Sequence record: OR062524
Reading direction: 5' to 3' (one strand)
Source: Escherichia phage vB_EcoM_3A1_SA_NWU
Length of the DNA stretch: 64,000 nucleotides
The notes beneath the pieces were generated by a model. The model was not told the origin of the DNA and searched no databases. It was given only the letters and a program-made list of their open reading frames with translations. The translations under genes were made by a program, and so were the position numbers. Shown in pieces: positions 40,739 through 55,702 of this stretch. The first letter of the stretch is position 1. The number at the start of each line of letters is the position of its first letter.

Positions 40739-41682
40739 TATAGCTCCTCAAATAAAAGTCTACGACGCTCATTCAACACATCAATGTGATAATGAGTCCT
40801 GACATACTTAGCTAATGCTAATCCTTTCTCCATGCAAACATCGGGAGCACTTAATAAGTATTCCGTAATATCTTTCCACTCGGAAAGTGTTTCAGCAAAG
40901 AATAACAAATCTTTAAACTCTTGCGTATGATAATTCTCACGAGGAGAGCAGATTAAAGGTAAACCCTTAGCACCTGCCTCAAGAATTTTAAGATTGCTTT
41001 TTGCATTATTAAACACGTTATCGACCAATGGTGCAAGACTGATTTGATGACCATCGTAAGATTCCATGTAGTTGGCATATGGTCTTACACCTTCATAAAC
41101 ACTAGTTGGTGCTACATTTTCTCTAATTACAGACCATTCACGACTACTTAAAACTTCAGAATCCCTACGAAAACCACATATTGTAAGATCTTTACCAAAA
41201 TCGGGCAAGATAGCCAAATCTTGTTTATGTGTTTCACTTCCAGCCCAGACTAATGGAGTTTTGGAGTAGCGATCACGGGTCAACACAAATTGACCTTCAT
41301 CATAAGGAAGTCCATTAGGGATTATGTGCACATTATCATTGTATTGTGAAAGTTCAACTTGCAAGGCAGGTGTCGTAGTTGTAACAAGATCACTGTGCTC
41401 TAAAAACCATTTTAAATGTTCACGAATACCTGATTCAAAAATACCTTCTAACATGTGTCCTTTTGGAATAACTAAAGAGTCATCCAAATCCATAACCATT
41501 TTAAAGCCCAGGTTTTTAAGGGCTAAAAAGCCCTCTTTACCTTTTGTTGGCACTCCGTTAAAAACGAAAACGTTGTGTTTAGGTTGTGAAGAGAACTGCC
41601 TTGAGTAAGGCAGCACTACCCTATGGAAATCGCAGACACTATAATTGATTCCGTTACGATTGTCAAGAATTATTTGTCCCAT
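40738..41682 (-). CDS. glycosyltransferase, GT-B fold (GT4-like), paralog 2
   Basis: 314 aa; C-terminal motif NLKILEAGAKGLPLICS; paralogous to 41690-42637. Confidence 0.6.
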   Translation of the reverse strand: MGQIILDNRNGINYSVCDFHRVVLPYSRQFSSQPKHNVFVFNGVPTKGKEGFLALKNLGFKMVMDLDDSLVIPKGHMLEGIFESGIREHLKWFLEHSDLVTTTTPALQVELSQYNDNVHIIPNGLPYDEGQFVLTRDRYSKTPLVWAGSETHKQDLAILPDFGKDLTICGFRRDSEVLSSREWSVIRENVAPTSVYEGVRPYANYMESYDGHQISLAPLVDNVFNNAKSNLKILEAGAKGLPLICSPRENYHTQEFKDLLFFAETLSEWKDITEYLLSAPDVCMEKGLALAKYVRTHYHIDVLNERRRLLFEEL

Positions 41683-41689
41683 ACTTCAC

Positions 41690-42637
41690 CTACAAACTTT
41701 CAATAACCTGGCGTCGCAACTCGTTTGCATCTGCCAGATTATAATGTGTTCGAACATGTTCAGCCAAGAACAAGCCACGATCTTCCCGATAGTTTGGATT
41801 GCGAAGAAGCTTAACAATTTCGTAATGCCATTCTGCTTTATTCTCTGCGTAAGCAACAGCGTGAGCATCTACAGGGTTAAAATAAGGTAATACCTTAGAA
41901 CAAACAATTGGAATACCTTTTGCTCCAGCTTCCAGGATTTTGAGATTACTTTTACAATTATTAAAATCATTATCTACCAAAGGAGCTATAGCAATAGCAT
42001 GACTTTCGTAAACACTCATGTAATTATCTAAATCTTTTACGGCGGCTTTATATTTGGCATTTGGTAAATTTCTGCGAATCTTAATCCACTCTTGTCCCGT
42101 GATGCTTTGTGATGCTTCATATCCCGCAATAGTAAGAAGTTCATCATCGAAAGTATTAGAGACTAGTCGTAAGTCTGGTTCGTGACTAGCACCGCCAGCC
42201 CATACAACAGGGGTACCGGATGAACGATCATTTGACAAAGTGAATTGTCCGCTATCAAAAGGAAGTGCATTTCGGATCACAACAACATTCCTATTTAAGT
42301 GACGGATCTTATATGCTAAATATTCCGTAGTCACAATAACCACATCAGCAAGCTTAACCATAGCTACAATAGCATGAGTGTTTGACTCGTATAGACTTGC
42401 TAAATAATGTTCTGGATTAAGTTGGTAGAAATCATCTAAATCTACAACAATCTTAACACCTTGACGTTTCAAAGATAAAACGTATTCTGCACCTTTAGAA
42501 TGAATACGGTTAAACACGACAACATCTTTCTTAGGCTGAAAATTATTGTTGTTAAATGGTATAACAATACGATGATAATCACAACCACTGTGAGGTTTTG
42601 CATCAATTTTCAGTTTAGTCCATTTTTTATTTGACAT
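41690..42637 (-). CDS. glycosyltransferase, GT-B fold (GT4-like), paralog 1
   Basis: Track ORF 41690-42676 trimmed to ATG 42637 (MSNKK..., GAGGAGG upstream); motif NLKILEAGAKGIPIVCS. Confidence 0.6.
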   Translation of the reverse strand: MSNKKWTKLKIDAKPHSGCDYHRIVIPFNNNNFQPKKDVVVFNRIHSKGAEYVLSLKRQGVKIVVDLDDFYQLNPEHYLASLYESNTHAIVAMVKLADVVIVTTEYLAYKIRHLNRNVVVIRNALPFDSGQFTLSNDRSSGTPVVWAGGASHEPDLRLVSNTFDDELLTIAGYEASQSITGQEWIKIRRNLPNAKYKAAVKDLDNYMSVYESHAIAIAPLVDNDFNNCKSNLKILEAGAKGIPIVCSKVLPYFNPVDAHAVAYAENKAEWHYEIVKLLRNPNYREDRGLFLAEHVRTHYNLADANELRRQVIESL

Positions 42638-43310
42638 GTGCCAGTGCCTCCTCATAAGAAATTCGGATTTTCCCATTTTTAATATCTTCTAAAGACGCTT
42701 TATATTCTTCCCAGTTAATGCCAATAGCAGCTTCTTTCTCTTCTTTTGTCAGATTAGCAAAAGGCATAGGATTGTTTCCAAAAACATCGTCTGGGTGGAT
42801 ATAAGCCATGATACGAAGTGGACAAGGTATTGCCTGAATACCCTGATTCAAACCAGCAGCTTTCAAACGGTGTACCCATTCAGCATCTTCAAAACCATAG
42901 CCGTGAGTGTAAGGGCGGAAATAACCCATCTTCTCAACAACGGCACGAGAATACATTGCAAATTGACACATTGCAAGTTCCCAGAGAATAACTTCTCCTT
43001 TACTCCCAACAACTTTATCTTTGAAATACTCCGGCATACCAAAGAAATCCCATCTTCCAGAGACAGCTTGATCTACAAAATATGTTTCCCATCCCTCCAT
43101 GATTGGGTAGCAATCGTCGTCAAAAATAAACCAATAATCATAACCTTCTTCATAAAACTGGTGCATAAGTTCATTCCTGGCGTAAGCTACACCTTTACGA
43201 TCTGGATCGTTGAATACTCGAAAATCTGCATGTGGATCTGTTACAAGATAGTCTTTAAGTGGACGGACACCTACAGTGATAACACCCACTCCGATTTTAA
43301 TATTTTCCAT
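42627..43310 (-). CDS. glycosyltransferase, GT-A fold (family 2-like)
   Basis: 227 aa; N-terminal Rossmann-like VGVITVG, DxD motif YWFIFDDDCYP, later GYGFEDAEW. Confidence 0.55.
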   Translation of the reverse strand: MENIKIGVGVITVGVRPLKDYLVTDPHADFRVFNDPDRKGVAYARNELMHQFYEEGYDYWFIFDDDCYPIMEGWETYFVDQAVSGRWDFFGMPEYFKDKVVGSKGEVILWELAMCQFAMYSRAVVEKMGYFRPYTHGYGFEDAEWVHRLKAAGLNQGIQAIPCPLRIMAYIHPDDVFGNNPMPFANLTKEEKEAAIGINWEEYKASLEDIKNGKIRISYEEALAHVK

Positions 43311-43318
43311 TTTCTCTC

Positions 43319-43882
43319 CTAGATAGTTTTACTGTGATCGTGACAGTGTAATAAATGATGTATAGACCGTTGAGGATTTGTTTGACCTAATCTATAAATG
43401 TGAAACAGATACATTCCCCGCATCAATCCTAACCTCTTTCCTTTTTCATGTAAAGTGCGAGAGAAAATTAGGTCGAATTGGATAGATTTTTCTTCGAAAG
43501 GAATTTCATTCCACAATGATTTTCTAAAAAGCAAAAAGAAACCTGCCAGAGGTGTTCCGAAAGGAACTTCTTCAACACTCACTTTATGATATTCTCTTGC
43601 AATCTTAGCATATTCTATATGGTTTAGAATATCTGGATCATCGTTAATTTGGTTAGAGAAAAGCTGATAACCACTACCTAACCTGTTACAAGTTGCACCT
43701 ATTACATCAAAAGGCGGGTTTGACATAACAAGCTCTTCAAGCATAGATGGTTGATCAGGCAGGAGGAACATTGTATCGGTATCTCTTAAGCACACCCAAC
43801 TATCATCTGGAAGAACGGCAATAGCTTCATTGATAGCCTTGCCGATATTTCCTGTCAGATAGGGAGTAATATAATAAATCAT
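43319..43882 (-). CDS. putative nucleotide-sugar transferase (GT-A-like)
   Basis: 187 aa; YYITPY...LPDDSWVCLRDTDTMF (DxD-type motif). Confidence 0.4.
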   Translation of the reverse strand: MIYYITPYLTGNIGKAINEAIAVLPDDSWVCLRDTDTMFLLPDQPSMLEELVMSNPPFDVIGATCNRLGSGYQLFSNQINDDPDILNHIEYAKIAREYHKVSVEEVPFGTPLAGFFLLFRKSLWNEIPFEEKSIQFDLIFSRTLHEKGKRLGLMRGMYLFHIYRLGQTNPQRSIHHLLHCHDHSKTI

Positions 43883-45166: not shown

Positions 45167-45186
45167 GAGGGGGATTTCTCCCCCTC
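45167..45186 (-). other. GC hairpin abutting promoter -35 (after TerD)
   Basis: gaggggg-atttct-ccccctc between TerD stop and hydrolase promoter; no U-tract. Confidence 0.4.
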
Positions 45187-45204: not shown

Positions 45205-45807
45205 TTATGGACATTCATACCATTCTTTTTTACCACCGAAGGCCATCACTACATCACAAATATCCAGACCAGCTTTACCTACACCATATGCTTTCAGCTT
45301 CCATTCCCCATCTTCACGAACCAGGGAAGCCACGTGGCAGATTGTGTTGCCAGCTACTTCAGGAGCCAGGAAGTCAAAATCCAGAATTTCCACATTGCGC
45401 TCGGAATCGAAGATTTTAAGCATACCTTCAGAAGCATGACCAAAACGTTTCAGACCTGTATCATCATCAATGGTCAGAACAAAGGCAATCTCTTGTGCAT
45501 CAGGAGAGATTTTAGCCAGAGTAATATCAATCTGCTCCATGCTGCCAGTTCCATCACGAACATCGTCACCAGCGAAGGTAGAACGTTCAGGATCAAACTT
45601 GTTAGCATAGCAAACCAGATGACGTGCAGACAGCATTTCAGGATTGCCAGCGGCATTGTGACGACAAACCAGTGCACTTACATCCAGATCCAGTTTAGAA
45701 TCAGATTTCCAAGAGAATTCCAGGCGCAGTTCTTTCAGAGCCGGAGCAACTTTCTTCAGGGAAATTTTTTCGCTAGAGCCTTTTTTCAGGGAAATTTTAT
45801 CAGTCAT
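45205..45807 (-). CDS. terD: TerD-family protein (tellurium resistance TerD-like)
   Basis: 200 aa; N-terminus MTDKISLKKGSSEKISLKK..., DLDVSALV, C-terminal DGEWKLKAYGVGKAGL closely matching TerD DGEWKFRAVGQGYAGGL. Confidence 0.8.
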   Translation of the reverse strand: MTDKISLKKGSSEKISLKKVAPALKELRLEFSWKSDSKLDLDVSALVCRHNAAGNPEMLSARHLVCYANKFDPERSTFAGDDVRDGTGSMEQIDITLAKISPDAQEIAFVLTIDDDTGLKRFGHASEGMLKIFDSERNVEILDFDFLAPEVAGNTICHVASLVREDGEWKLKAYGVGKAGLDICDVVMAFGGKKEWYECP

Positions 45808-45822
45808 CTTTTGTCTCCTCTA

Positions 45823-46092
45823 TTATTTAAGTGTAATACCAGTTACAGTCAATTCTACTTCCAAAAGCTTAGATGTGTTTTGGATTGATACTAATTGTGC
45901 ATGATGGTTTAGTTCTACAGCAGAATAATCATTTTCCCCATCATCTACTTTTAAATAAACAATGATTTCACTAAGGTCTAAACCATTTTCGTCAAATGCA
46001 TTTTCATAGACGAAAGTATCTCCTACATCCAAATCTTTAATGGTAAGGCATCGTTTATTTACTTTTTGCTCATCAATTTCGAAGTTTAACAC
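45823..46092 (-). CDS. small conserved protein, paralog B of 47114-47392
   Basis: 89 aa; aligns with paralog A (FEIDEQK.../DLDVGDTFVYENAFDENGLD.../EVELTVTGITLK); GTG start with AGGAGG RBS. Confidence 0.5.
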   Translation of the reverse strand: MLNFEIDEQKVNKRCLTIKDLDVGDTFVYENAFDENGLDLSEIIVYLKVDDGENDYSAVELNHHAQLVSIQNTSKLLEVELTVTGITLK

Positions 46093-46321
46093 TTCTTCCT
46101 CCTAATGTTATCTCCGGTTTGTATATACGAAGAATTATAGCATTTTCATTTTCTTTGTCAACCCATTCTTCATAATCAGGCCATACATGAATCTCTACTC
46201 TACTTACAATATCTTCCATTCGCACAGTCCCAATGAAATACTCTTTGAGACTGCGCATAATGAAAGCTTCTCTCTCGCGCCAATAATTTTCTATGACTTG
46301 AGAGGCAAGCTCGTCGATCAT
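46073..46321 (-). CDS. hypothetical small protein
   Basis: 82 aa ORF between vWA gene and paralog B. Confidence 0.4.
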   Translation of the reverse strand: MIDELASQVIENYWREREAFIMRSLKEYFIGTVRMEDIVSRVEIHVWPDYEEWVDKENENAIILRIYKPEITLGGRSVKLRN

Positions 46322-47112
46322 TTTTTAGCACCTACTTTAACAACCCACTCTCCGAACTCTTCAGATAAGAGTTTGTCATAAAGCTCTGAATCTGTCAAGT
46401 CTAAATCTTTAATGCCAATAAAACCAACATTATCATAAGCATTTGCCAGTTCTTTCAGGAAGCCAAACTTCTCATTACCAACGCCAACCATGAACCAATA
46501 AATAGGTTTATTCTTATTCTCTTCGATAAGACGACGAACAGCACTAGGATCACCATTCTCACCATCCGTCTGGAAGAATACAACACCAGGGGTAACGTCA
46601 GCACCTGGTTCAGATACAGCTACAACTTTTTCACGCTCTACAGACACTGTTTCAGTTTTACCAAGCAGACGATTAAAGAAGCCTTTCTTTGGAGCCTCCT
46701 CTTGTACCACTTGTTTAGTGGTAATATATTTAGTAACAGTGCCAAAATACTCATCGTAGATATCCGCCATTACAGGGGCGTAATTTGTTCCACCTCCGAT
46801 ACGAACATTACGCATACATTTACCAACATAATCATCGTAAACGTCTGCTGTTGCTGGAGTAAGCTCTTGAGAACTCGTATTGAAGGCCCACATATCAATT
46901 TGTTCATTATCGTCGAACAGCATACCAAAAGGAAGCAGTTTACCTACAAAATCACTCACTACCCCACTAGAATATAGACCATGCATACTACCAGAAATGT
47001 CTAGAGCACATGCTACACGAAGAACAATCTTACCTTCATTCAGGTTCTTATTCTTTTTCAGAGAGAAAGCAAGGTTTTCTTGACGTTTTTTCAGGCTGAT
47101 TTTCTCGGACAT
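46318..47112 (-). CDS. von Willebrand factor A domain protein (TerY-like)
   Basis: 264 aa; MIDAS motif ALDISGSM; TerD-like N-terminal ISLKK repeats; within Ter-type cluster. Confidence 0.65.
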   Translation of the reverse strand: MSEKISLKKRQENLAFSLKKNKNLNEGKIVLRVACALDISGSMHGLYSSGVVSDFVGKLLPFGMLFDDNEQIDMWAFNTSSQELTPATADVYDDYVGKCMRNVRIGGGTNYAPVMADIYDEYFGTVTKYITTKQVVQEEAPKKGFFNRLLGKTETVSVEREKVVAVSEPGADVTPGVVFFQTDGENGDPSAVRRLIEENKNKPIYWFMVGVGNEKFGFLKELANAYDNVGFIGIKDLDLTDSELYDKLLSEEFGEWVVKVGAKK

Positions 47113-47113
47113 A

Positions 47114-47392
47114 TTATTTCTCCTTCTTAAGTGTAATATTGGTAACTTCTAAATCTACTTCCACCATATTTGTATCTGGTGGGATGCAATGAGTATAGCC
47201 TCGTTGTGCTAGTGATCCATTAATACAAATCGCACTGTTTGTGGAATTTTTAATGAACACCAAGTTACGGTAGGTATCCAACCCTGCGTCTTCATAGGCA
47301 TCATAATACATGAATGTGGCCCCTATGCCAAGATCTTCGAAAGCAATAGGTAAATCCTGACACTTTTCTTCTTGAATATTGAATCTAAACAC
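47114..47392 (-). CDS. small conserved protein, paralog A
   Basis: Track ORF 47114-47458 trimmed to GTG 47392 (GAGGAGG RBS) where homology to paralog B begins. Confidence 0.45.
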   Translation of the reverse strand: MFRFNIQEEKCQDLPIAFEDLGIGATFMYYDAYEDAGLDTYRNLVFIKNSTNSAICINGSLAQRGYTHCIPPDTNMVEVDLEVTNITLKKEK

Positions 47393-47948
47393 GCATACCT
47401 CCTCTACCAATTTTGAAGCCCAAATCGTAAGCTTCCTTAGTGATCTTTTGTAACTCACTTATAGGAAGTGTTACAAGAGGATCATCTTCTTCAATTTCCA
47501 TCTTGTCATCTTCTGTTTCAATGAGAGTATTATGCACTTTGTGATAAGGGTTGTCAACACGTTTAAACTTATTCTTTTCTGTGCTGAAAAAACAATCTGG
47601 ATCTTCTTCACCATCGCCCCAACCTTGATTAGGATCTCCGTCAGATTGTTCTGTAGGGATTTCACCTGTAAAATACTCTTCCAGCACCATAGCAATACCG
47701 TCCCTTGGATTTGAGGAATGCATTAAATCACAAACCTTACCCCAATCCATAGCCCATTCGAACCGTTCACGAACGCCGTTTTCATCCTCCTTTCCAGAGA
47801 AAACACAACCATAACTATCATAGTTGCCATACATCTCTTCAATAACAACACCGTCCTTCAAAAGAAAGAGGTAGCAAGGTGATCCGTCGAAAGAAGTAGA
47901 AAGGGCAGCTTTGCCCGATTCTTTGCACAAAAAGCTAAAACAACCCAT
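47385..47948 (-). CDS. hypothetical acidic protein
   Basis: 187 aa, Asp/Glu-rich. Confidence 0.45.
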   Translation of the reverse strand: MGCFSFLCKESGKAALSTSFDGSPCYLFLLKDGVVIEEMYGNYDSYGCVFSGKEDENGVRERFEWAMDWGKVCDLMHSSNPRDGIAMVLEEYFTGEIPTEQSDGDPNQGWGDGEEDPDCFFSTEKNKFKRVDNPYHKVHNTLIETEDDKMEIEEDDPLVTLPISELQKITKEAYDLGFKIGRGGMRV

Positions 47949-48145
47949 TACAAACCCTCCTTCAGATTATCAAGAGCTACAGTGGTTTCACAAAATTCTC
48001 CATACGCTTTATGATGTTCTAGAAAAGCTTCAGGTCCACCCCAATCATTATCTTGTGTATTCCAACCATCAATAAAAGCATCTTCAATGATTGTGATCAG
48101 TTCCTGTCGAGTCAACGTAATGGTATCAGGTTTTGGATTATGCAT
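47948..48145 (-). CDS. hypothetical small protein
   Basis: 65 aa, ATGA-coupled. Confidence 0.4.
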   Translation of the reverse strand: MHNPKPDTITLTRQELITIIEDAFIDGWNTQDNDWGGPEAFLEHHKAYGEFCETTVALDNLKEGL

Positions 48146-48311
48146 CTTCTTTCTCCTCTAAAATATGAAACCCATAGCTACAATAGTCCTGAAAGGTTTC
48201 GTGTGCAAGATCTTCTATATCCTCTTGAGACATATCATCTTCAATTTCGATATCCACAACCTCATTGCATCCACACCAAGCAGTTTCAATATTCACTCGT
48301 AAAGTTTTCAT
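48138..48311 (-). CDS. hypothetical small acidic protein (57 aa, not in ORF track)
   Basis: Manual translation MKTLRVNIETAWCGCNEVVDIEIEDD...; ATG overlaps upstream stop, fills a 160-nt gap. Confidence 0.35.
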   Translation of the reverse strand: MKTLRVNIETAWCGCNEVVDIEIEDDMSQEDIEDLAHETFQDYCSYGFHILEEKEDA

Positions 48312-48514
48312 TCTTCTTCCTCATTAAAGTCCACATCAGAAATAACTTTAAATCTACCAAAGTTACGACAACCTTCATAGATATATCCATCACGACAAGC
48401 TGCAAAAATATCTGGAGTTTGTAGCTGGGTCATTGGGGCAAAGCGTTTCTCTTCGTCATAACGAACACCTATTTCTCCGGCTTGTTCGTCAAGCATGTAT
48501 ACACGGATTCTCAT
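48308..48514 (-). CDS. hypothetical small protein
   Basis: 68 aa, ATGA-coupled to TelA-like gene. Confidence 0.4.
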   Translation of the reverse strand: MRIRVYMLDEQAGEIGVRYDEEKRFAPMTQLQTPDIFAACRDGYIYEGCRNFGRFKVISDVDFNEEEE

Positions 48515-49623
48515 TTACCCAACCCCTTCTTAACAGCGTCAACCATCCCATCTTCGAGAGATTGAACTTCATTGATGTAATCAACACGGGCAGCACGGGC
48601 TTCCGTATTGATGCGGTTAGTTTCTTCCAACATTCTAACCAAGTTTTCCTGATCGTGACGCAGAGTTTCAATATCCAACACTTGACGGTTAGCCAGTGCT
48701 GCTGCTTCGATCTGATTCTGTGTGGCAAGATCGCTACCCAGTTTAATTGCCAGGTTAAATTCATCAAGAACGTTATTCTGTGTCTCTGCGGCTTTCATTT
48801 GACGTAAGCTCTCAATATACATTGAGAAGTTAGCAGAGTAAGCAGGAATAACATTATTTACTATGTTACGCGCAGATCGCATTAAGCTTGCAGAAACTTT
48901 TTGCATACCTTGTACACGCGGTCCCATTTGGACACACAGTAGGCGCAACGCCTTTAAATCTGCAATACGAATCTCCAGGAGATCCAAAGTATCTCGGATC
49001 ACTTGTCGCTGTTCTACGGCATCTTCTGGAAGAGCAGCCAAAGCTTGTTCTTCTTTTTCATAGGTTGCTGTTAGAAGCTGCATATCTCGGTTCAAACTTG
49101 CAGCATATTGTCCAATAGCTTGGTGTAGCTTTTCAAGATATACCAAGGAATCTTCTTCTTTGCGAATATCCATTTGAAGGTTCTTTACCAACTCTTCAAT
49201 ACGGTTATTAACATTATCAAACTCCCCAAACAGGTCTTCTTTCATACCCATAACTTTTTTAATGAGTTTAGTAATACCCTTGCTTTGTTTAATAGAGTTT
49301 GGATCAAGTTGTTTTGCCTGTTTAATCAAAGCTGTGAGTCGTTCACTCATCTGATCGCCTTGATTACTACGTTGATGTTTTAACACCTCGGCATTCAAGG
49401 AACGCAAGGTTGTTCCTGCCTCTGCCCCGATTTCTTCGATCTCTTGCCTGGTCATAGAAGGCAAAGCTGGGACTTCTTGCGGTGCGGCTGGTGCATAAAC
49501 AGGACTGGCATCTAACACGCTTGGAGCGAATACAGATTTACTTGCATCTGTTGTTGCAGCAAATACGCTCATTTCAGGCTTCTTCTGACCACCAGTAGCT
49601 GCTTTTAAAAATGGACTTGTCAT
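48511..49623 (-). CDS. telA: TelA-like protein (toxic anion resistance family, putative)
   Basis: 370 aa, long helical protein of TelA/KlaA size class sitting between TerC and TerD/vWA genes; assignment by architecture and context. Confidence 0.5.
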   Translation of the reverse strand: MTSPFLKAATGGQKKPEMSVFAATTDASKSVFAPSVLDASPVYAPAAPQEVPALPSMTRQEIEEIGAEAGTTLRSLNAEVLKHQRSNQGDQMSERLTALIKQAKQLDPNSIKQSKGITKLIKKVMGMKEDLFGEFDNVNNRIEELVKNLQMDIRKEEDSLVYLEKLHQAIGQYAASLNRDMQLLTATYEKEEQALAALPEDAVEQRQVIRDTLDLLEIRIADLKALRLLCVQMGPRVQGMQKVSASLMRSARNIVNNVIPAYSANFSMYIESLRQMKAAETQNNVLDEFNLAIKLGSDLATQNQIEAAALANRQVLDIETLRHDQENLVRMLEETNRINTEARAARVDYINEVQSLEDGMVDAVKKGLGK

Positions 49624-50210
49624 TCTTCATTCTCCTCTTCTGCATCTCTTATATATGGTGAAACACCGTACTCTTTAGCTACTTTAACCCAATCGTCCCA
49701 TTTATACAACCATAATTTTCCTTCGGTCCCTTCTTTATCTGATTTCAACCACATATTAGGTTGCTTACCTGGGTACATGCGATTAGGTTTACGATTATAA
49801 CCTCTAACACATCTTGTCGCAAACCTATCTACCAGAACAAGAACATATTTATATTCGTGGTTCAACGGCTCTTTGGAAGTGGCTTTAGGATTAGCCCCTA
49901 ATTCTGCTGCCAGTTTTTGCCAATGAGCACCGTGCCTACTAAACTTACCCATACAACCATCAATAGCATGAGCAATTTCGTGCTTCATTGTATCCACGAT
50001 CATATCTCTTGTAGAGTTCTTATGCAAGTGCCAATTTACAACAACAATTTTATCTCGGTAGTTGCACCAACCGAAAGAGTTATTCACTTTGTTTCTAACG
50101 CAAGCTTTATATCCCGCTTCACGTAACATGTTGTAGTAAACAGGAAAATCTTCTTTTATTTCCTGCATCACTTCCCACCACAAGAGTTGCAAGTCTCTCT
50201 CGGTATACAT
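49620..50210 (-). CDS. Zn-dependent metallohydrolase (SprT/YgjP-like HExxH...HGxxW motif)
   Basis: 196 aa; motif MKHEIAHAIDGCMGKFSRHGAHW. Confidence 0.5.
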   Translation of the reverse strand: MYTERDLQLLWWEVMQEIKEDFPVYYNMLREAGYKACVRNKVNNSFGWCNYRDKIVVVNWHLHKNSTRDMIVDTMKHEIAHAIDGCMGKFSRHGAHWQKLAAELGANPKATSKEPLNHEYKYVLVLVDRFATRCVRGYNRKPNRMYPGKQPNMWLKSDKEGTEGKLWLYKWDDWVKVAKEYGVSPYIRDAEEENEE

Positions 50211-50213
50211 AAC

Positions 50214-50807
50214 TTACACCTTAAAAGTGAAATGTGTGGTAGTGACTTCAAAATCAGAGCCAGATAAACGTGCACTGAAATCTGAAATATTTGTAATTAA
50301 AAAGCTTTTATGCATACCTAACACAGCCACGCTTTCAATATCTTCTACTAACATTTCAATCATGTTAGAAACATGGCTGAACGTATAGTTTTGTTTTTTG
50401 ATGGTGTAGAAAGAAAGACTCCCACCTGCTGTATAAGATACCTCTTCAAAATCTTTAATCGTATATTGTGTGCCATCAGTAAAGAAAATGGTAGCTTTAT
50501 TAGTAGCACGTTTCTTGTTTTTTGGTCCTTTTTTACGTTTACTGCGAGTAGGCAAACCGTTTGGGAACACCGTAGCTACAAATTCTTCAGGGGAAACCTC
50601 CTTACCGAAATCATAACCGTAAGAAACAGCGTCTATAAACTCGTCGTCTTCATTTTTAAAATAATGAAAATAGGGCCAATTTGAGAGATTATCAAGCATC
50701 TTATGCTCATCCACAGCAGAGAACGTATCTCTCAAAGCACGTGTGATTTGTAAAGCATTAGGCAAACTTTTAACACCTGTAATGGAAGTACGAATAGAAA
50801 TTGTCAT
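50214..50807 (-). CDS. hypothetical protein
   Basis: 197 aa; AAGGAGAA RBS. Confidence 0.45.
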   Translation of the reverse strand: MTISIRTSITGVKSLPNALQITRALRDTFSAVDEHKMLDNLSNWPYFHYFKNEDDEFIDAVSYGYDFGKEVSPEEFVATVFPNGLPTRSKRKKGPKNKKRATNKATIFFTDGTQYTIKDFEEVSYTAGGSLSFYTIKKQNYTFSHVSNMIEMLVEDIESVAVLGMHKSFLITNISDFSARLSGSDFEVTTTHFTFKV

Positions 50808-50821
50808 TGTTTTTCTCCTTA

Positions 50822-51259
50822 TTAACGTCGCTTGCTACGAGATGAACTCTTTTTACTTAAAGGGCTATTGTAAGATTTACGAGTTGTATAGCTACTATTT
50901 GTTTTAAAAGTTTGTCTCGGCTTTTCATAAGTTTTTATCTCTTGTTTAGGCTTACCATAAAAATTAGTTTTCGGTTTAGGTGCATTATAATGCTTATTAA
51001 TAATCGTTCTGTTATCGTTATAATCCCCACTGCTACGATTACTACCGCCACTCATCATATGCCCTAACAACATACCTGTAGCAAACTCACCAACACCGCT
51101 ACTACTAGAACCGCCACCATTGTTGATAATAGTTGTATCTCCGTCAGATCCTTGTTGAGCGTATTGTTGAGGAGGTTGTTGGTATTGTGCAGGATTTGTT
51201 TCATCCTCGCAAGCTGTTAAAAAGATACAACCAATTAAAATCAGGGCTAGTTTTTTCAT
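50822..51259 (-). CDS. lipoprotein with glycine-rich (glycine-zipper-like) region
   Basis: Track ORF trimmed to MKKLALILIGCIFLTAC (signal peptide + lipobox LTAC, GAGGAA RBS); Gly/Ser-rich core, basic C-terminus. Confidence 0.6.
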   Translation of the reverse strand: MKKLALILIGCIFLTACEDETNPAQYQQPPQQYAQQGSDGDTTIINNGGGSSSSGVGEFATGMLLGHMMSGGSNRSSGDYNDNRTIINKHYNAPKPKTNFYGKPKQEIKTYEKPRQTFKTNSSYTTRKSYNSPLSKKSSSRSKRR

Positions 51260-51446
51260 ATTTGCTTTCCTCGTTTTGGCTATTAATACATCTGTGTTTG
51301 AAATCTCCAGAGAAGCAATAAAGTTGCTCTCCATCTCGGTATAAACTCACTTTACTGCCGTTGATTACGCTTGTCAATACAAAAATTACAACAAACAACC
51401 CTATTGCAAAACAGATATTTTCAAACACAACCAACAAGTATTTCAT
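51201..51446 (-). CDS. small membrane protein
   Basis: 81 aa; N-terminal hydrophobic helix FAIGLFVVIFVLTSVI; ATGA-coupled; 3' end overlaps lipoprotein start by 59 nt in another frame. Confidence 0.4.
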   Translation of the reverse strand: MKYLLVVFENICFAIGLFVVIFVLTSVINGSKVSLYRDGEQLYCFSGDFKHRCINSQNEESKYEKTSPDFNWLYLFNSLRG

Positions 51447-51793
51447 TTTAAAAATACCTCATCATCAGTTTCATTATCCCAGAAGAACAAATCCCAACCA
51501 TTTGGATCGTTCCATTTGGCTGCTGGAGAAGTCCATATTTGTTCGATATCAATATTCAAAACTTCACCGTTTCGTTTTGAAACAGCTTTAGTTAATTCCC
51601 AACGAGATACAGGCTCTACTTCTCCTGAACCACTTCCACAACAAGCTACAACATTAGGAGGCAAATTAATTGGATCTTTGGTCACAATCATAACGCTTAC
51701 CCCAGGGTAAACTTTTGAAAGATAATCTGAAATGTAATCCACACTACCAGATAAATCCCAAACAAGTTCTTGAATTTCATCAAAATTACTCAT
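51443..51793 (-). CDS. hypothetical protein
   Basis: 116 aa; AGGAGAG RBS right after terminator hairpin. Confidence 0.45.
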   Translation of the reverse strand: MSNFDEIQELVWDLSGSVDYISDYLSKVYPGVSVMIVTKDPINLPPNVVACCGSGSGEVEPVSRWELTKAVSKRNGEVLNIDIEQIWTSPAAKWNDPNGWDLFFWDNETDDEVFLK

Positions 51794-51805
51794 AAGTCTC
51801 TCCTA

Positions 51806-51829
51806 TAAAATAGCCTCCCGAAGGAGGCT
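51806..51829 (-). terminator. rho-independent terminator after TerC gene
   Basis: Minus strand AGCCTCC-TTCG-GGAGGCT then TTTTAT. Confidence 0.5.
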
Positions 51830-51835
51830 TATCTA

Positions 51836-52810
51836 TTAAACAGTGGCTTCTTCTTTTTCAGGAAAGATAAAGCTTGCAATAACACCAAGAGCTAATGTGC
51901 CCAGAACAATCATCAGACTTACGTTAGGGGAAATATCATGCGGGAGGAATGACCACTTGGCATGAAGTGTTTCACCGAACGGGTGATACATAAGTTTAGC
52001 ACCGACAAACACCAGAACCACAGCAACCGCTTTCTCTAAGTGAACCAGATATTTCACAGCTACACTTAACACAAAGAAAAGTGCACGTAAACCAAGAACA
52101 GCCATCAGCATTGCAGAATAAACTAGCAGAGGTTCTTGTGTCACACCGATCACAGCCGGAACTGAATCAAAAGAGAAGACAATATCTGTAAGCTCAATAA
52201 CAAACACACAAAGAAGAGCAGGAGTTGCATATTTAATACCATTCTTAATGGTGATGAACTTTTCACCATCCAGTGCATTGTGCACAGGCAGAACTTTACC
52301 TACTAAACGAACAGCCCAATGTTTAGAGTAATCAATATCCTCTTCTTCGTCACCACCTTTGATGATAGCCACGGCAGACCAAGCTACAATCAAACCGAAC
52401 AACACTTGGACCGACCAATGAAGGTTAAACAAAGCGGTCCCTGCTGCAACAAAAATACCTCGGAAGACAATGGCTCCTGCAATCCCCCAAAGTAGAATCT
52501 TATGTTGGAGATGTGTGCTCTTAATTCCAAAGCTTGCAAAAATTGCCATGAACACCATTAGGTTATCTACAGAAAGACTCTTTTCCAACACATAGCCACT
52601 TAGGAAAAGCGCGGCAAACTCTTTACCATGTTCTACCCAAATGAATGCGTAATATCCTAAAGCTAAAGCAATCCAAAAAACAGACCAAAGCAAAGCAGAT
52701 TTAATTCCAATTTCTTTATTCTCTTTATGACCAAAGAAATCGATACCAATAGACAATGCCAAAATACCAACTAAAACAACTACATCAATGATTGGGAAAC
52801 CAAGTTGCAT
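51836..52810 (-). CDS. terC: TerC-family integral membrane protein
   Basis: 324 aa, multiple hydrophobic helices, conserved SLSVDN motif, acidic loop GGDEEEDIDYS; AAGGAG RBS. Confidence 0.75.
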   Translation of the reverse strand: MQLGFPIIDVVVLVGILALSIGIDFFGHKENKEIGIKSALLWSVFWIALALGYYAFIWVEHGKEFAALFLSGYVLEKSLSVDNLMVFMAIFASFGIKSTHLQHKILLWGIAGAIVFRGIFVAAGTALFNLHWSVQVLFGLIVAWSAVAIIKGGDEEEDIDYSKHWAVRLVGKVLPVHNALDGEKFITIKNGIKYATPALLCVFVIELTDIVFSFDSVPAVIGVTQEPLLVYSAMLMAVLGLRALFFVLSVAVKYLVHLEKAVAVVLVFVGAKLMYHPFGETLHAKWSFLPHDISPNVSLMIVLGTLALGVIASFIFPEKEEATV

Positions 52811-52829
52811 TATTTTCTCCTTTCTCTTT

Positions 52830-52848
52830 GCGGGGAACCACTCCCCGC
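52830..52848 (-). promoter_or_regulatory. 5' leader hairpin upstream of TerC
   Basis: gcgggg-aaccact-ccccgc between predicted start site and RBS. Confidence 0.4.
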
Positions 52849-52860
52849 CTCATGTGATAC

Positions 52861-52888
52861 ATCTTACTCTTTTTTAAAACCTTGTCAA
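52861..52888 (-). promoter_or_regulatory. sigma70-like promoter (TTGACA-16 nt-TAAGAT) for TerC unit
   Basis: Minus strand gtgTTGACA-16nt-TAAGAT; -35 at 52883-52888, -10 at 52861-52866. Confidence 0.45.
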
Positions 52889-52891
52889 CAC

Positions 52892-53113
52892 TTATTTTGA
52901 AGAACTGGAGGAAAAGATTCCACGCAGCACTGCCATAATGAACGCTACGCACACCACGGTCCAGAATGTAACAGGAACAGTGATATCTGTGTGACCCATC
53001 ATTTCAACAACGTAGTTGTAAGCCAGCAGCAGAAGCCACGCTGGAATCATACTGATCAGGAAAGCCAGAACAAACACGATAACTACTGCCAGAACACCTG
53101 CAACAACACCCAT
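52892..53113 (-). CDS. small membrane protein (two hydrophobic helices)
   Basis: 73 aa, almost entirely hydrophobic; GAGGAG RBS. Confidence 0.5.
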   Translation of the reverse strand: MGVVAGVLAVVIVFVLAFLISMIPAWLLLLAYNYVVEMMGHTDITVPVTFWTVVCVAFIMAVLRGIFSSSSSK

Positions 53114-53126
53114 ATTATTTCTCCTC

Positions 53127-53609
53127 TTAAAGTTTATAAATAGTCACATCGTGACCTGCTTTTACTAAAGTTTCTTCAATCATCACTTCGATGATAGCCC
53201 AATTACCTCCTGCCAACCCTGCTCCAATCATAGGTAAACCAATCTTATGTTCGGCAGATGTGTTCACCCATTTGTGGAGATCCTTTGCCATAGCCTCAAG
53301 AGCATCATACAGGGCATCATAGTCCAACTGACGACCTTTACCGTTATACCCGTAACGGTACTGTCCGTATAGGTTATAAACCAGTGGGTCAGACACCTCC
53401 TCCGGCACCCCTAAACTAAAAGAACCCAGCTTACTTTGATCACCTGCGGCTGTGTCCAAGTCGGCTGCATATGCATAAGGAAATGCTCGTTTAATTTGCG
53501 GAGCAATCCCTGCACCCATATTACACATACAGTTACAACAGTGGGCTATAACGTTCACTTCCCCATTCTTCGCTGCATCGATCAGATTCCCAGTAACAAC
53601 CTTCAACAT
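53127..53609 (-). CDS. macro domain protein (ADP-ribose binding/processing, putative)
   Basis: 160 aa; N-terminal VVTGNLIDAAKNGEVNVIAHCCNCMCNMGAGIA and C-terminal IGLPMIGAGLAGGNW resemble macro domain boxes; AAGGAGG RBS. Confidence 0.5.
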   Translation of the reverse strand: MLKVVTGNLIDAAKNGEVNVIAHCCNCMCNMGAGIAPQIKRAFPYAYAADLDTAAGDQSKLGSFSLGVPEEVSDPLVYNLYGQYRYGYNGKGRQLDYDALYDALEAMAKDLHKWVNTSAEHKIGLPMIGAGLAGGNWAIIEVMIEETLVKAGHDVTIYKL

Positions 53610-53618
53610 TTTTCCTCC

Positions 53619-54446
53619 TTACAGAATATGTTGTTTTGTGTAACGATCCAAGAACTCAAAGTTTTCAGCATACTTTGCAATTCGATTGTAGCCTTCAGCT
53701 AAACAGCCGAAGAAAAGTTGTTCCACATAGTAGTGTGGCAATTGGCTAAGAATGATTTTGAAGTCTTCATGATTTTGGCCCATAAGATACTTAATAGGAC
53801 GAACAAGACACTGTGCATCACATTCTTCATTAATCATTTTAACAAACGCTTCTGGTGTATTAATATAGTTAAAATTCAGCTTAGCTTCGGTATCTGCTTG
53901 ATTACCTTCATATTTTGCAAAATACAAGAAGTAAACATCATTTTTAACTTGATTTTCATCAAGAATCTCAATCAGTTTGTCTTCATGAGTTCCAGTGATA
54001 TTTACATCATCAATGAACACAAGCTTCTTATCACCCCAGAATTCTTTGTTGCAGTAGAATGTATCCCCATCAATAAGTTTCTTACGACTAGCTTTATCCA
54101 AGAAACCATAATCGTTGATATAGCTAACTTTACGATGAATAATATCCAGTTCTGCTGAACGACCTTGATCATATTGTGCTTGCAACATATTAAAGTAATT
54201 AATAAAATGATCTGTCATCATTGTTGCAGCATTATGCACATGGTTATAAGGAGAAGGAATGATAACAAATTGTTCCCCAATATGTTTCATTGCTACTTGA
54301 GCAAAAAACTGAAGTGCCAATTCTTTACCCATACGACGCGCAGCTTGGTTACTACCAAATTTCAATTTTGAATAATCTTTGATATCAAAAGTAGCAGTTT
54401 CCAGGGCATCAAATTTATTTGCAAAAATTTGAGTTTGATTACGCAT
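53619..54446 (-). CDS. phosphoribosyltransferase-type protein (type I PRTase motif)
   Basis: 275 aa; PRPP-binding-loop-like motif KKLVFIDDVNITGTHEDKL. Confidence 0.55.
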   Translation of the reverse strand: MRNQTQIFANKFDALETATFDIKDYSKLKFGSNQAARRMGKELALQFFAQVAMKHIGEQFVIIPSPYNHVHNAATMMTDHFINYFNMLQAQYDQGRSAELDIIHRKVSYINDYGFLDKASRKKLIDGDTFYCNKEFWGDKKLVFIDDVNITGTHEDKLIEILDENQVKNDVYFLYFAKYEGNQADTEAKLNFNYINTPEAFVKMINEECDAQCLVRPIKYLMGQNHEDFKIILSQLPHYYVEQLFFGCLAEGYNRIAKYAENFEFLDRYTKQHIL

Positions 54447-55095
54447 TTACAATTTCTCCTCTTTTAAGTTTCTCTAGTAAGTCGTTAGGGTTCTTAATAT
54501 AACAGAAGTTAATCCCTATGTCAACACATTTACCATCAAATTCTTCGCTGTCCCCAACATGTAAAATCTCTTCAGCCTTCAAAGGAATGCTTGAATATGT
54601 GGCGGTCCTAACAAAGAATCTAGGATCTGGTTTACACAACAGATGTTCGTCTGAAAAATGCATAAATTCAAAACAATTCCAACTATCGAACATACAAGCA
54701 CGACGCAAAATATCCCCAGATATAAAATTAGTATTGCTTTTAATACTAAGATCATATTTACCAGACAAGTATAGCAAACAAACTGGCAAATCTAAAGCAA
54801 TATGTGGAGGAAATTTAAGAAACCACTGTTCGCACTCAAAACGCATTTGTGCAGATTCTACAGGGGTTAAACCTATTTTTCTTCCCAACATATTCCATGC
54901 ATATGCCACACCTTCTGCACACCCATTTAGTGCAGCATTATCCATAATTTCTTTGGCATCTTTATATGCTTCTTTTGCGGCACGTTCAGACATTCTACCA
55001 TATGTCGCAATAGTGTGCGTACGTGCGTCTGCATAGTTTTGATTGGCAGAAATAAGAGTGTTCCATACATCAAAAGAGATATGTTTTATTGTCAT
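54439..55095 (-). CDS. HAD-superfamily hydrolase (putative phosphatase)
   Basis: Track ORF trimmed to ATG 55095 (MTIKHISFDVWNTLI..., 1 nt after upstream stop); motif I FDVWNTL, motif IV-like HVGDSEEFD. Confidence 0.5.
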   Translation of the reverse strand: MTIKHISFDVWNTLISANQNYADARTHTIATYGRMSERAAKEAYKDAKEIMDNAALNGCAEGVAYAWNMLGRKIGLTPVESAQMRFECEQWFLKFPPHIALDLPVCLLYLSGKYDLSIKSNTNFISGDILRRACMFDSWNCFEFMHFSDEHLLCKPDPRFFVRTATYSSIPLKAEEILHVGDSEEFDGKCVDIGINFCYIKNPNDLLEKLKRGEIVNA

Positions 55096-55096
55096 A

Positions 55097-55702
55097 TTAA
55101 GCCCACCACGCATCAAGATTTAAGTTACTGTCTACCACAACTTGTTCTATGTGGTAGCCTTTTATCTGTATCCCACTGTTCAAGAGCATATCATACGCTT
55201 CATTGAAACGCAACTTATCTTCTGCGGAATATAAACGAGCATTATAAAATCGGTAATCAATTTCTTCAGCATTAGAAGAAATACGGAAGAAGTTTGTTTC
55301 TACTTCGGGATCACTTGCTGAAGTCTTAATGTGAACTTCTCCATAATTTTCTTTACTTAGATCCATGAAAAGAACACAGGCAACATGTTTAAACATTCGT
55401 TCCAGTTTGTAACGAACAACATTGAAACCTGCATTCTCAAGTTTTTCTACACACTGCAACATTAAAGTAGTGTCGAGATCGCTTTGATACTTTGTTAACA
55501 TACGATCACGTTGAGACTTTGTATCCCGATGTAAATCAATTGTTGTGCATTTGGCACCAATAATCTTAGCTGCTTTCATCAACTCTTCAGAACTAACGTT
55601 AGATAAAGTAAGATGAAAATGGGCTTTCCACACTTTTTTAGCAGGGACACCAAAAGATTTATCCCCACTATTCGGCATGTTGACTACTACACTATGTTGC
55701 AT
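55097..55702 (-). CDS. hypothetical protein
   Basis: 201 aa; single HxTx-like motif AHFHLTLS; GAGGAG RBS. Confidence 0.45.
   Translation of the reverse strand: MQHSVVVNMPNSGDKSFGVPAKKVWKAHFHLTLSNVSSEELMKAAKIIGAKCTTIDLHRDTKSQRDRMLTKYQSDLDTTLMLQCVEKLENAGFNVVRYKLERMFKHVACVLFMDLSKENYGEVHIKTSASDPEVETNFFRISSNAEEIDYRFYNARLYSAEDKLRFNEAYDMLLNSGIQIKGYHIEQVVVDSNLNLDAWWA

Follow-up and report, generated by a model that had tools for sequence, protein, structure and literature searches.

What does a cluster of Ter-type genes, commonly labelled tellurite resistance genes, do in the genome of a coliphage? The question is raised by positions 45205-52888 of a stretch of DNA from Escherichia phage vB_EcoM_3A1_SA_NWU (sequence record OR062524; the whole 64,000-nucleotide stretch that was analysed is called here the window), in which a first-pass annotation had recognised a complete Ter set and had found its presence in a phage unexpected. 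The stretch belongs to a phAPEC8-like (Phapecoctavirus) E. coli phage, a myovirus of the subfamily Stephanstirmvirinae, and the block is near certain to be the Ter module that phAPEC8-like and phi92-like coliphages conserve in their early region. Its parts, with the same near certainty, are a TerC/Alx-type inner-membrane protein resembling cation transporters, a helical TelA protein, a TerF-type vWA protein whose metal-ion-dependent adhesion site (MIDAS) is intact and one divergent TerD beta-sandwich protein. The cluster is already known, as an annotated feature of a described phage subfamily and as a member of the class of phage Ter systems found in the literature. Its four core genes are as follows.

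45205-45807, minus strand: TerD-domain protein, 200 aa (Pfam PF02342, 3.2e-28)
46318-47112, minus strand: vWA protein of the TerF C-terminal type, 264 aa, with intact MIDAS (PF10138, 1.7e-37, 130 bits)
48511-49623, minus strand: TelA-family protein, 370 aa, all-helical (PF05816, 3.8e-33)
51836-52810, minus strand: TerC/Alx-family inner-membrane protein, 324 aa (PF03741, 3e-40)

The four Ter proteins and their relatives

Profile hidden Markov model searches upheld the TerD, TelA and TerC assignments of the first-pass annotation, each at the place on the minus strand where it had been proposed, with E-values that chance would by no means produce. TerC scored 319 bits against the Alx/TerC subfamily model TIGR03718 (cut-off 246), contains the SLSVDN motif, and is 48-50% identical to plasmid TerC proteins and 71-89% identical to its orthologues in phage phi92 and in phi1_175008 (called here the Klebsiella phage). 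E. coli Alx and the riboswitch-controlled TerC genes fall in the same subfamily ('R_switched_Alx'); in contrast to Alx, the phage TerC gene has no yybP-ykoY element and is preceded by a short leader with one hairpin and by a constitutive-looking sigma70 promoter. TelA scored 115 bits against its Pfam model (cut-off 30), its AlphaFold2 model is a long helical bundle with a pLDDT of 71.5, and its orthologues in phi92 and the Klebsiella phage are 74-78% identical.

Regarding the vWA protein, the MIDAS and the TerD-like N-terminus previously described are both present, whereas the label 'TerY-like' had to be abandoned in favour of the TerF C-terminal type. The MIDAS residues (D38-x-S40-x-S42, T109 and D183) are invariant in an alignment of eight sequences that includes plasmid TerF, and with the C-terminal half of that TerF the protein shares 28% identity (2.6e-18). 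Its N-terminus, MSEKISLKK...FSLKK, resembles the start of TerD, MTDKISLKK...ISLKK; since plasmid TerF, too, has an [IV]SLxK motif ahead of its vWA domain, this motif belongs to the TerF-type module. A TerY-like vWA was rejected because the generic VWA model scored under its cut-off, at 17.5 bits, and the TerY-P models of PADLOC gave no match. A TerY-P defence system was rejected as well, as PADLOC returned no match for the vWA protein or its neighbours and neither a kinase nor a PP2C was found among the scanned open reading frames (ORFs). In the vWA proteins of this subfamily, residues ~120-175 form an insertion of about 50 residues between the MIDAS Thr and Asp segments, and a KKGFF...GK motif within it is loosely common to other phage vWA-TerF proteins and absent from plasmid TerF.

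TerD carries DGEWKLKAYGVGKAGL and ISLKK repeats, matches the solved structure of Klebsiella TerD (PDB 2KXT, 1.5e-15) and has orthologues with 81-86% amino acid identity in phi92 and the Klebsiella phage. The canonical acidic calcium-binding loop, GDNRTGEGDGDDE, is worn down in it to AGDDVRDGTGSMEQ, with DLDVSA retained. Throughout the phage clade this loop reads AG[D/E/A]DVRDG[T/V]G[S/Q/E]MEQ, being shorter and substituted at three acidic positions, with DLD[V/A]SA kept; the loop of R478-type TerD, GDN(R/L)TG(E/A)GDGDDE, is thus not found in the phage protein.

The whole block, 45205-52888, aligns end to end with more than 50 GenBank Phapecoctavirus genomes at 97-99% nucleotide identity. Nucleotide matches were obtained in 99 GenBank records, 61 of which cover at least 80% of the query, the closest being vB_EcoM_10C3_SA_NWU (98.9%). 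Several of the matching Phapecoctavirus records are already labelled tellurite resistance, TerC, TerD, TelA(-like) or VWA, and the phi92 record of 2012 already names TerC, TelA and TerD as putative tellurium, toxic-anion and stress proteins. The same cluster is present in phAPEC8 (gp200-gp218), phi92 (gp171-gp187) and other Stephanstirmvirinae, the Ter proteins being 66-89% identical in phi92 and the Klebsiella phage. The surprise expressed at meeting these genes in a phage was therefore misplaced, given the more than 50 published Phapecoctavirus genomes that hold the cluster, the synteny with phi92 and the phage Ter operons already described (Iyer et al. 2021). The first-pass annotation had allowed that the cluster might be a characterised feature of a described genus; it proved to be a known and annotated feature, and not an experimentally characterised one.

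Every gene of the block is on the minus strand; a SleB-type wall hydrolase gene lies to one side of it and NrdD/NrdG (anaerobic ribonucleotide reductase) to the other, with small lineage-specific genes scattered among the Ter genes and a pair of genes encoding a HAD-superfamily hydrolase and a PRTase_3 phosphoribosyltransferase 0.8 kb upstream of TerC. As judged by tblastn, phi92 and the Klebsiella phage keep the order 74-aa gene, HAD, PRTase_3, Macro, 73-aa membrane protein and TerC, followed by lipoprotein, part of the 197-aa gene, TelA, 65-aa gene, vWA, TerD and SleB, an order thus common to three genus-level lineages. In the same comparison, the 187-aa and ~90-aa genes are common to phi92 only, and the SprT-like and 201-aa genes to the Klebsiella phage only. 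In contrast to both relatives, the window lineage has 82-aa and 89-aa genes between vWA and TerD and lacks the 200-aa gene (phi92 gp171) that follows TerD there; it differs from phAPEC8 in its Macro and HAD alleles.

The Ter genes are under strong purifying selection. Compared with phAPEC8, the four genes show 63.5 synonymous and 7.5 non-synonymous differences, with ratios of non-synonymous to synonymous rates (dN/dS) of 0-0.05; the ratios against phi92 and the Klebsiella phage are 0.03-0.15, at saturated dS. By contrast, three segments share no more than 52-81% nucleotide identity with phAPEC8, in flanks of 96-100%: 47900-48600, which holds the small ORFs downstream of TelA (52-76%, with an indel), 53090-53690, which holds the Macro gene, and 54590-55190, which takes in the HAD gene's 5' half together with the adjoining 3' end of the 201-aa gene. 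Judging from this pattern, the 47.9-48.6 kb ORFs and the Macro and HAD segments look like mosaic hot spots of allele replacement.

Beyond the subfamily, the window carries every component by which abbreviated phage Ter systems are recognised (TerD, TerC, a TerF-type vWA and TelA, with PRTase and HAD as optional members). The same four-family core occurs in the abbreviated operons of phiPsa374-like phages, Caulobacter jumbo phages, phiKp34 and vB_AbaM_ME3 (Iyer et al. 2021; Frampton et al. 2014), and Pfam searches recovered TelA, vWA-TerF, TerC (or a DUF475 relative) and TerD in both phiPsa374 (Otagovirus) and Caulobacter phage CcrBL9, the latter with the DUF475-type TerC relative. The sequences are distant, TelA being 22-28% identical and TerC and TerD being missed by tblastn. 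These abbreviated operons pack their four genes compactly together, while in the window the core genes occupy 7.6 kb, interspersed with 13 other ORFs and several promoters. TelA homologues were found in 224 phage records and PRTase_3 homologues in 156.

The plasmid operon is less similar. The R478-type plasmid locus examined (Enterobacter AP022275) encodes terZ, terA, a gene at the terB position, terC, a gene at the terD position, terE and terF, together with PRTase_2+TRSP, ATPgrasp_Ter, a gene annotated as citrate lyase subunit beta and a HAD-like gene. Likeness lies in TerC (48.5% identical), in the phage TerD, which matches TerZ (24%), and in the PRTase and HAD-like enzyme near both. However, the phage vWA protein has only the ~20-aa [IV]SLxK motif in place of the N-terminal TerD domain of TerF, TelA is not in the plasmid operon, PRTase_3 stands in the phage against PRTase_2+TRSP in the plasmid, and the phage has neither ATPgrasp_Ter nor CitE. 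The claim of a complete set consequently fell, as TerB, TerA/Z/E, ATP-grasp and CitE are missing. Two further operons are comparable in part: B. subtilis yceCDEFGH (three TerD, TerC and a TelA-like protein) belongs to envelope-stress regulons, and the RK2 kilA operon (klaA-klaB-telB) joins a TelA-family protein with membrane partners. Neither is known to have vWA-TerF or PRTase-HAD, and both are chromosomal or plasmid-borne and stress-regulated, not phage-early.

Transcription signals of the module

The first-pass annotation had given TerC a promoter, a leader hairpin and a terminator of its own, and all three are kept in two other genera. These and the other signals of the block are the following.

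52861-52888, minus strand: sigma70-like promoter of TerC, TTGACA-16-TAAGAT, conserved in phi92 and the Klebsiella phage
52830-52848, minus strand: TerC 5' leader hairpin, GCGGGGA-GUGGU-UCCCCGC, lying after the -10 box and ahead of the ribosome-binding site (dG -14.3 kcal/mol, z -3.65)
51812-51829, minus strand: terminator-like hairpin, AGCCUCC-UUCG-GGAGGCU followed by AUUUUAU, 7 nt past the TerC stop (dG -14.4 kcal/mol, z -3.7)
51349-51377, minus strand: sigma70-like promoter, TTGACA-17-TAAAGT, upstream of the lipoprotein gene, with equivalents in phi92 (6322) and the Klebsiella phage (5888)
46134-46161, minus strand: perfect sigma70 consensus, TTGACA-16-TG-TATAAT, upstream of the 89-aa gene and TerD (12/12 matches, extended -10)
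45168-45185, minus strand: hairpin AGGGGGA-GAAA-TCCCCCT just past the TerD stop, with a weak T tract, as read from the sequence

The promoter scan of the window was not enriched over shuffled sequences (40 found versus 32.7 +/- 7.0), so that the support for the TerC promoter comes from its positional conservation in the two other genera; it also coincides with a promoter predicted by MEME and annotated in phAPEC8. In each of the three lineages, a sigma70-like promoter stands ahead of TerC, of TerD and of the lipoprotein gene, the one between vWA and TerD being likewise present in phi92 and the Klebsiella phage. In the window, the 46134-46161 promoter falls inside the 82-aa coding sequence, 42 nt before the start of the 89-aa gene.

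At the position of the TerC leader hairpin, phi92 has GCGGAGGA-UUG-UCCUCCGC (dG -15.0 kcal/mol) and the Klebsiella phage AAGAGGGGG-AUAGG-CUCCCUCUU (dG -13.4 kcal/mol). As the stems differ in sequence among the lineages, it is the structure and not the sequence that is conserved, and the hairpin is most economically read as an mRNA-stabilising 5' stem-loop. Among 20 matches to promoters of the TTGAC[A/T] type, only those at 41666 (-13.9 kcal/mol), 18008 (-13.0) and 1641 (-14.5) have leaders comparable to that of TerC. A yybP-ykoY manganese riboswitch ahead of TerC was rejected, the leader being ~50 nt long with a single hairpin and no Rfam family; Rfam at gathering thresholds gave no match anywhere in the window, and in 52700-53200 a scan by E-value gave chance-level matches only. 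The terminator stem of phi92, AAGCCCC-UUCG-GGGGCUU, shows compensating changes, that of the Klebsiella phage is the same as in the window, and a hairpin stands just past TerD at the same place in both phages.

Possible roles of the module

We tentatively read the Ter module as an early envelope-protection or exclusion device, a real possibility that stays short of an even chance. In this scheme, host sigma70 RNA polymerase would transcribe the Ter genes shortly after the DNA enters, starting at several promoters that belong to them; TerC would be transcribed singly, its message stabilised by the 5' hairpin and ended at a terminator of its own. The proteins would then assemble at the inner membrane, TerC within it and TelA, the vWA protein and TerD on its cytoplasmic face, and we infer that they act there jointly and early. 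Such an assembly could keep the membrane of the infected cell sealed and energised against pore-forming or depolarising insults, among them DNA injection by a secondary phage, pore-forming colicins and possibly membrane-targeting abortive-infection effectors, and a nucleoside-like ligand may come from the HAD-PRTase_3 pair, in line with a proposal made for the Ter systems of bacteria.

Envelope protection is suggested because plasmid ter operons confer such phenotypes and because Klebsiella TerC takes part in membrane-stress tolerance. The R478 ter cluster causes phage inhibition (Phi) and colicin resistance (Pac) (Whelan 1995, as quoted in the phiKp34 paper), and Klebsiella TerC is needed for tolerance of polymyxin B and cetylpyridinium chloride, not for that of metal stress or reactive oxygen species. 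The neighbours point the same way, on the one hand because several have an envelope theme (the lipoprotein, the 73-aa membrane protein and the SleB-type wall hydrolase), on the other because antitoxin-like genes, a DarG-like Macro gene and one for an AbiEi-like protein, flank the HAD-PRTase pair. The place of the B. subtilis yce operon in envelope-stress regulons speaks in the same sense. The same four-gene core is moreover listed in the unrelated lytic phages phiPsa374 and CcrBL9 and in two phage-like contigs (L009 and L010); comparison of TelA with the 389-402-aa proteins beside TerC in these contigs gave an hhalign probability below 1%. A proposal of similar kind has been made in the literature, where phage Ter systems with TerD, TerC, TerF-vWA and TelA, to which PRTase and HAD are added in vB_AbaM_ME3, were suggested to serve in competition with superinfecting phages and, additionally, in xenobiotic tolerance during pseudolysogeny (Iyer et al. 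2021, who also note Ter systems in 'certain other related smaller tailed phages'). Indeed, the roles put forward in the first-pass annotation, namely exclusion, envelope or metal stress and a small metabolite, are those already proposed by others.

Several observations weigh against envelope protection. Neither TerB nor the extra TerD paralogues of the plasmid operon that confers Phi and Pac were found among the 26 ORFs scanned in and beside the block; TerA, TerZ and TerE are equally missing there, and TerD is the single TerD-domain protein. No PADLOC defence model matches TerD, vWA, TelA or TerC, and the TelA model yields no specific fold match. The promoters are consensus matches, not mapped transcription start sites. 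The acidic loop of TerD is eroded in this clade, so that calcium sensing is not to be assumed, and HAD-PRTase_3 occurs elsewhere without nearby Ter genes, so that its link to Ter is not obligatory. Finally, full-text literature searches and the genus papers contained no experiment on any phage Ter gene: the same Ter subset was said to have an unknown role by the authors of the phiKp34 and phiPsa374 papers, the phi92-like TerD and TelA genes were flagged in an analysis of the Intesti cocktail (2015), and papers on Phapecoctavirus isolates leave the Ter genes undiscussed or merely list them as 'tellurite resistance'.

In a narrower and more doubtful form of the same idea, the compact, early-expressed Ter module and HAD-PRTase_3, placed among antitoxin-like genes, would together make an inner-membrane protection or counter-defence device that blocks the entry of rival-phage DNA and neutralises depolarising abortive-infection effectors or colicins. 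If this is true, and shown in a K-12-infecting phage of the phi92-like or phAPEC8-like kind, it would give the Ter protein family its first mechanistic role. E. coli K-12 served as isolation host for several relatives (among them anhysbys, nieznany, muut and JohannJBalmer), which makes genetics feasible, and a minimal four-protein version under strong purifying selection is a model for a family whose physiological role recent bacterial studies still call unknown. The matter also bears on the safety assessment of phage therapy, since 'tellurite resistance' labels are flagged when therapeutic cocktails are screened. As a discovery the cluster adds little, being present in public phage genomes while phage Ter systems have been reviewed.

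Metal homeostasis is an unlikely alternative purpose, in which TerC would export or chaperone Mn2+, Zn2+ or Ca2+ with TerD and the vWA MIDAS as cytoplasmic partners, tuning divalent cations for phage metalloenzymes or for the metalation of exported proteins during infection. The subfamily model that TerC matches at 319 bits is named 'TerC/Alx family metal homeostasis', the MIDAS residues of the vWA protein are invariant, and NrdD/NrdG and wall hydrolase genes lie nearby. In published work, Alx is reported as a manganese exporter, the TerC-family protein MeeY as a metal chaperone and Klebsiella TerC as contributing to zinc resistance. Against this stand the lack of a yybP-ykoY riboswitch in the short one-hairpin leader, the eroded acidic metal loop of TerD and the study in which Klebsiella TerC was dispensable under metal stress; the constant company of TelA and vWA with TerC in phages would also be left unexplained.

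Still less probable is a metabolite-centred function, in which HAD and PRTase_3 would make a nucleoside-like molecule from phosphoribosyl pyrophosphate (PRPP) and a base, to be sensed, put into effect or exported by the Ter proteins, the molecule itself being the active principle, either as a signal or by interference with the nucleotide or NAD metabolism of the host. The two genes concerned lie upstream of TerC, just outside the block flagged at first pass.

53619-54446, minus strand: PRTase_3 (ComF-like phosphoribosyltransferase), 275 aa (PF15610, 4.4e-41)
54439-55095, minus strand: HAD-superfamily hydrolase, 218 aa, always immediately upstream of PRTase_3 (weak matches to Pfam Hydrolase and NCBIfam HAD IA subfamilies)

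The assignment of a PRTase and HAD pair to the biosynthesis of a Ter signal has been made before (Iyer et al. 2021), and the PRPP-binding motif, VFIDDVNITGT in the translation, is intact. The HAD-then-PRTase_3 order is kept in seven other phages or contigs, and the pair forms a fixed two-gene unit in E. coli, Klebsiella, Xanthomonas and Rhizobium phages and three metagenomic contigs; in contigs L009 and L010 it directly adjoins TerC, TerD and vWA-TerF. NAD-salvage genes neighbour the pair in two cases, NMNAT/Nudix in a Rhizobium phage (L006, 6283-6855) and PnuC with AAA_28 in contig L010 (12029-13612), and NAMPT and a Prs-like kinase lie near the Ter genes of phiPsa374 (L003, 1-3594), which together hint that the PRTase substrate could be a pyridine base. 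However, the pair stands without nearby Ter genes in several phages, no PRTase_3 gene accompanies the Ter core in the part of phiPsa374 that was examined, and Pseudomonas phages are absent among the named PRTase_3 matches. Moreover, motif I of the HAD protein is an invariant DxWxT in all eight orthologues (8/8), not the DxDxT of phosphatases, with the other HAD motifs intact; as a tryptophan replaces the general acid/base aspartate, the enzyme may not be an ordinary phosphatase, which leaves a scheme of 'PRTase then phosphatase' insecure. ATP-grasp, CitE and TRSP of the plasmid biosynthetic module are absent from the phage. An equation of the phage PRTase and HAD with the plasmid enzymes was rejected, the PRTases belonging to different Pfam families and tblastn showing no similarity for either protein.

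A host-benefit cargo, giving tellurite or xenobiotic tolerance to carrier or pseudolysogenic cells and playing no part in the lytic cycle, is very improbable in spite of the GenBank label 'tellurite resistance' and the mention of xenobiotic resistance during pseudolysogeny by Iyer et al. (2021), as dN/dS of 0-0.15 in three genera of strictly lytic-type myoviruses speaks for a contribution to the fitness of the phage itself, the genes sit within the early/replication region with promoters of their own, TerB is absent and the authors of the phiPsa374 paper consider such a subset unlikely to confer tellurite resistance.

The remaining genes of the block and its neighbours

The other ORFs in and next to the block are listed below; apart from those with an assignment, the ORFs of the block match only PHROGs without assigned function.

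45823-46092, minus strand: hypothetical protein, 89 aa, paralogue of the 92-aa protein (phrog_11278, 7e-45)
46073-46321, minus strand: hypothetical protein, 82 aa (phrog_22387 only)
47114-47392, minus strand: hypothetical protein, 92 aa, GTG start as in the phAPEC8 annotation, paralogue of the 89-aa protein (phrog_11278)
47385-47948, minus strand: hypothetical protein, 187 aa (phrog_14928)
47948-48514, minus strand: variable segment with three small ORFs (65, 57 and 68 aa), none with a Pfam match above cut-off
49620-50210, minus strand: SprT-like metalloprotease-like protein with HExxH (HEIAH), 196 aa (PF10263, 4.2e-9)
50214-50807, minus strand: hypothetical protein, 197 aa (phrog_27550)
50822-51259, minus strand: probable lipoprotein, start taken at MKKLALILIGCIFLTAC, with signal peptide and lipobox in the translation
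51443-51793, minus strand: hypothetical protein, 116 aa (phrog_27498 only)
52892-53113, minus strand: hydrophobic membrane protein, 73 aa, always upstream of TerC, as read from the translation

The two paralogues of about 90 aa noticed at first pass are genuine, the 89-aa and 92-aa proteins being 31% identical (BLASTP 1e-13) and members of one PHROG; the phi92 orthologue of the 92-aa protein is 62% identical and lies directly upstream of vWA. The HExxH metallohydrolase proposed at the same time is the SprT-like protein, whose gene overlaps the start of TelA by 4 nt and which is 49% identical in the Klebsiella phage, with no tblastn match in phi92. The 187-aa protein has a 76% identical counterpart in phi92 and none by tblastn in the Klebsiella phage, the 197-aa protein shows partial similarity only in both, and the 82-aa and 116-aa proteins have no tblastn match in either; the 82-aa protein has no Pfam match. 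In phi92 and the Klebsiella phage, the gene of the 73-aa membrane protein keeps its place and the protein is 57-63% identical.

Lipoproteins of phages often act as exclusion factors. The probable lipoprotein of the block, MKKLALILIGCIFLTAC at its start, has a Gly/Ser-rich middle and a very basic C-terminus, and its gene has its own sigma70-like promoter; the PHROG alignment begins at residue 22, and phi92 gp180 has a predicted signal peptide.

Two genes flanking the HAD-PRTase_3 pair resemble antitoxins. The Macro-domain protein (53127-53609, minus strand, 160 aa) matches DarG antitoxin models of PADLOC (4.8e-12), while its NCBIfam DarG match (4e-11) lies far below the equivalog cut-off; from these similarities it may be a phage de-ADP-ribosylase countering DarT-type toxins. 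A Macro gene 40% identical to it lies ~3 kb from the Ter genes of phiPsa374. The 201-aa protein (55097-55702, minus strand) has no Pfam match, and searching PDB sequences with it and with vWA, TelA and PRTase_3 gave no significant match; two AbiEi antitoxin models of PADLOC fit it over nearly its full length (4.7e-13 and 4.4e-12), which suggests a putative antitoxin mimic. It is 76% identical in the Klebsiella phage and absent from phi92 by tblastn. Downstream of the block, two ORFs at 42627-43882 on the minus strand are the counterparts of phi92 genes annotated with glycosyltransferase folds.

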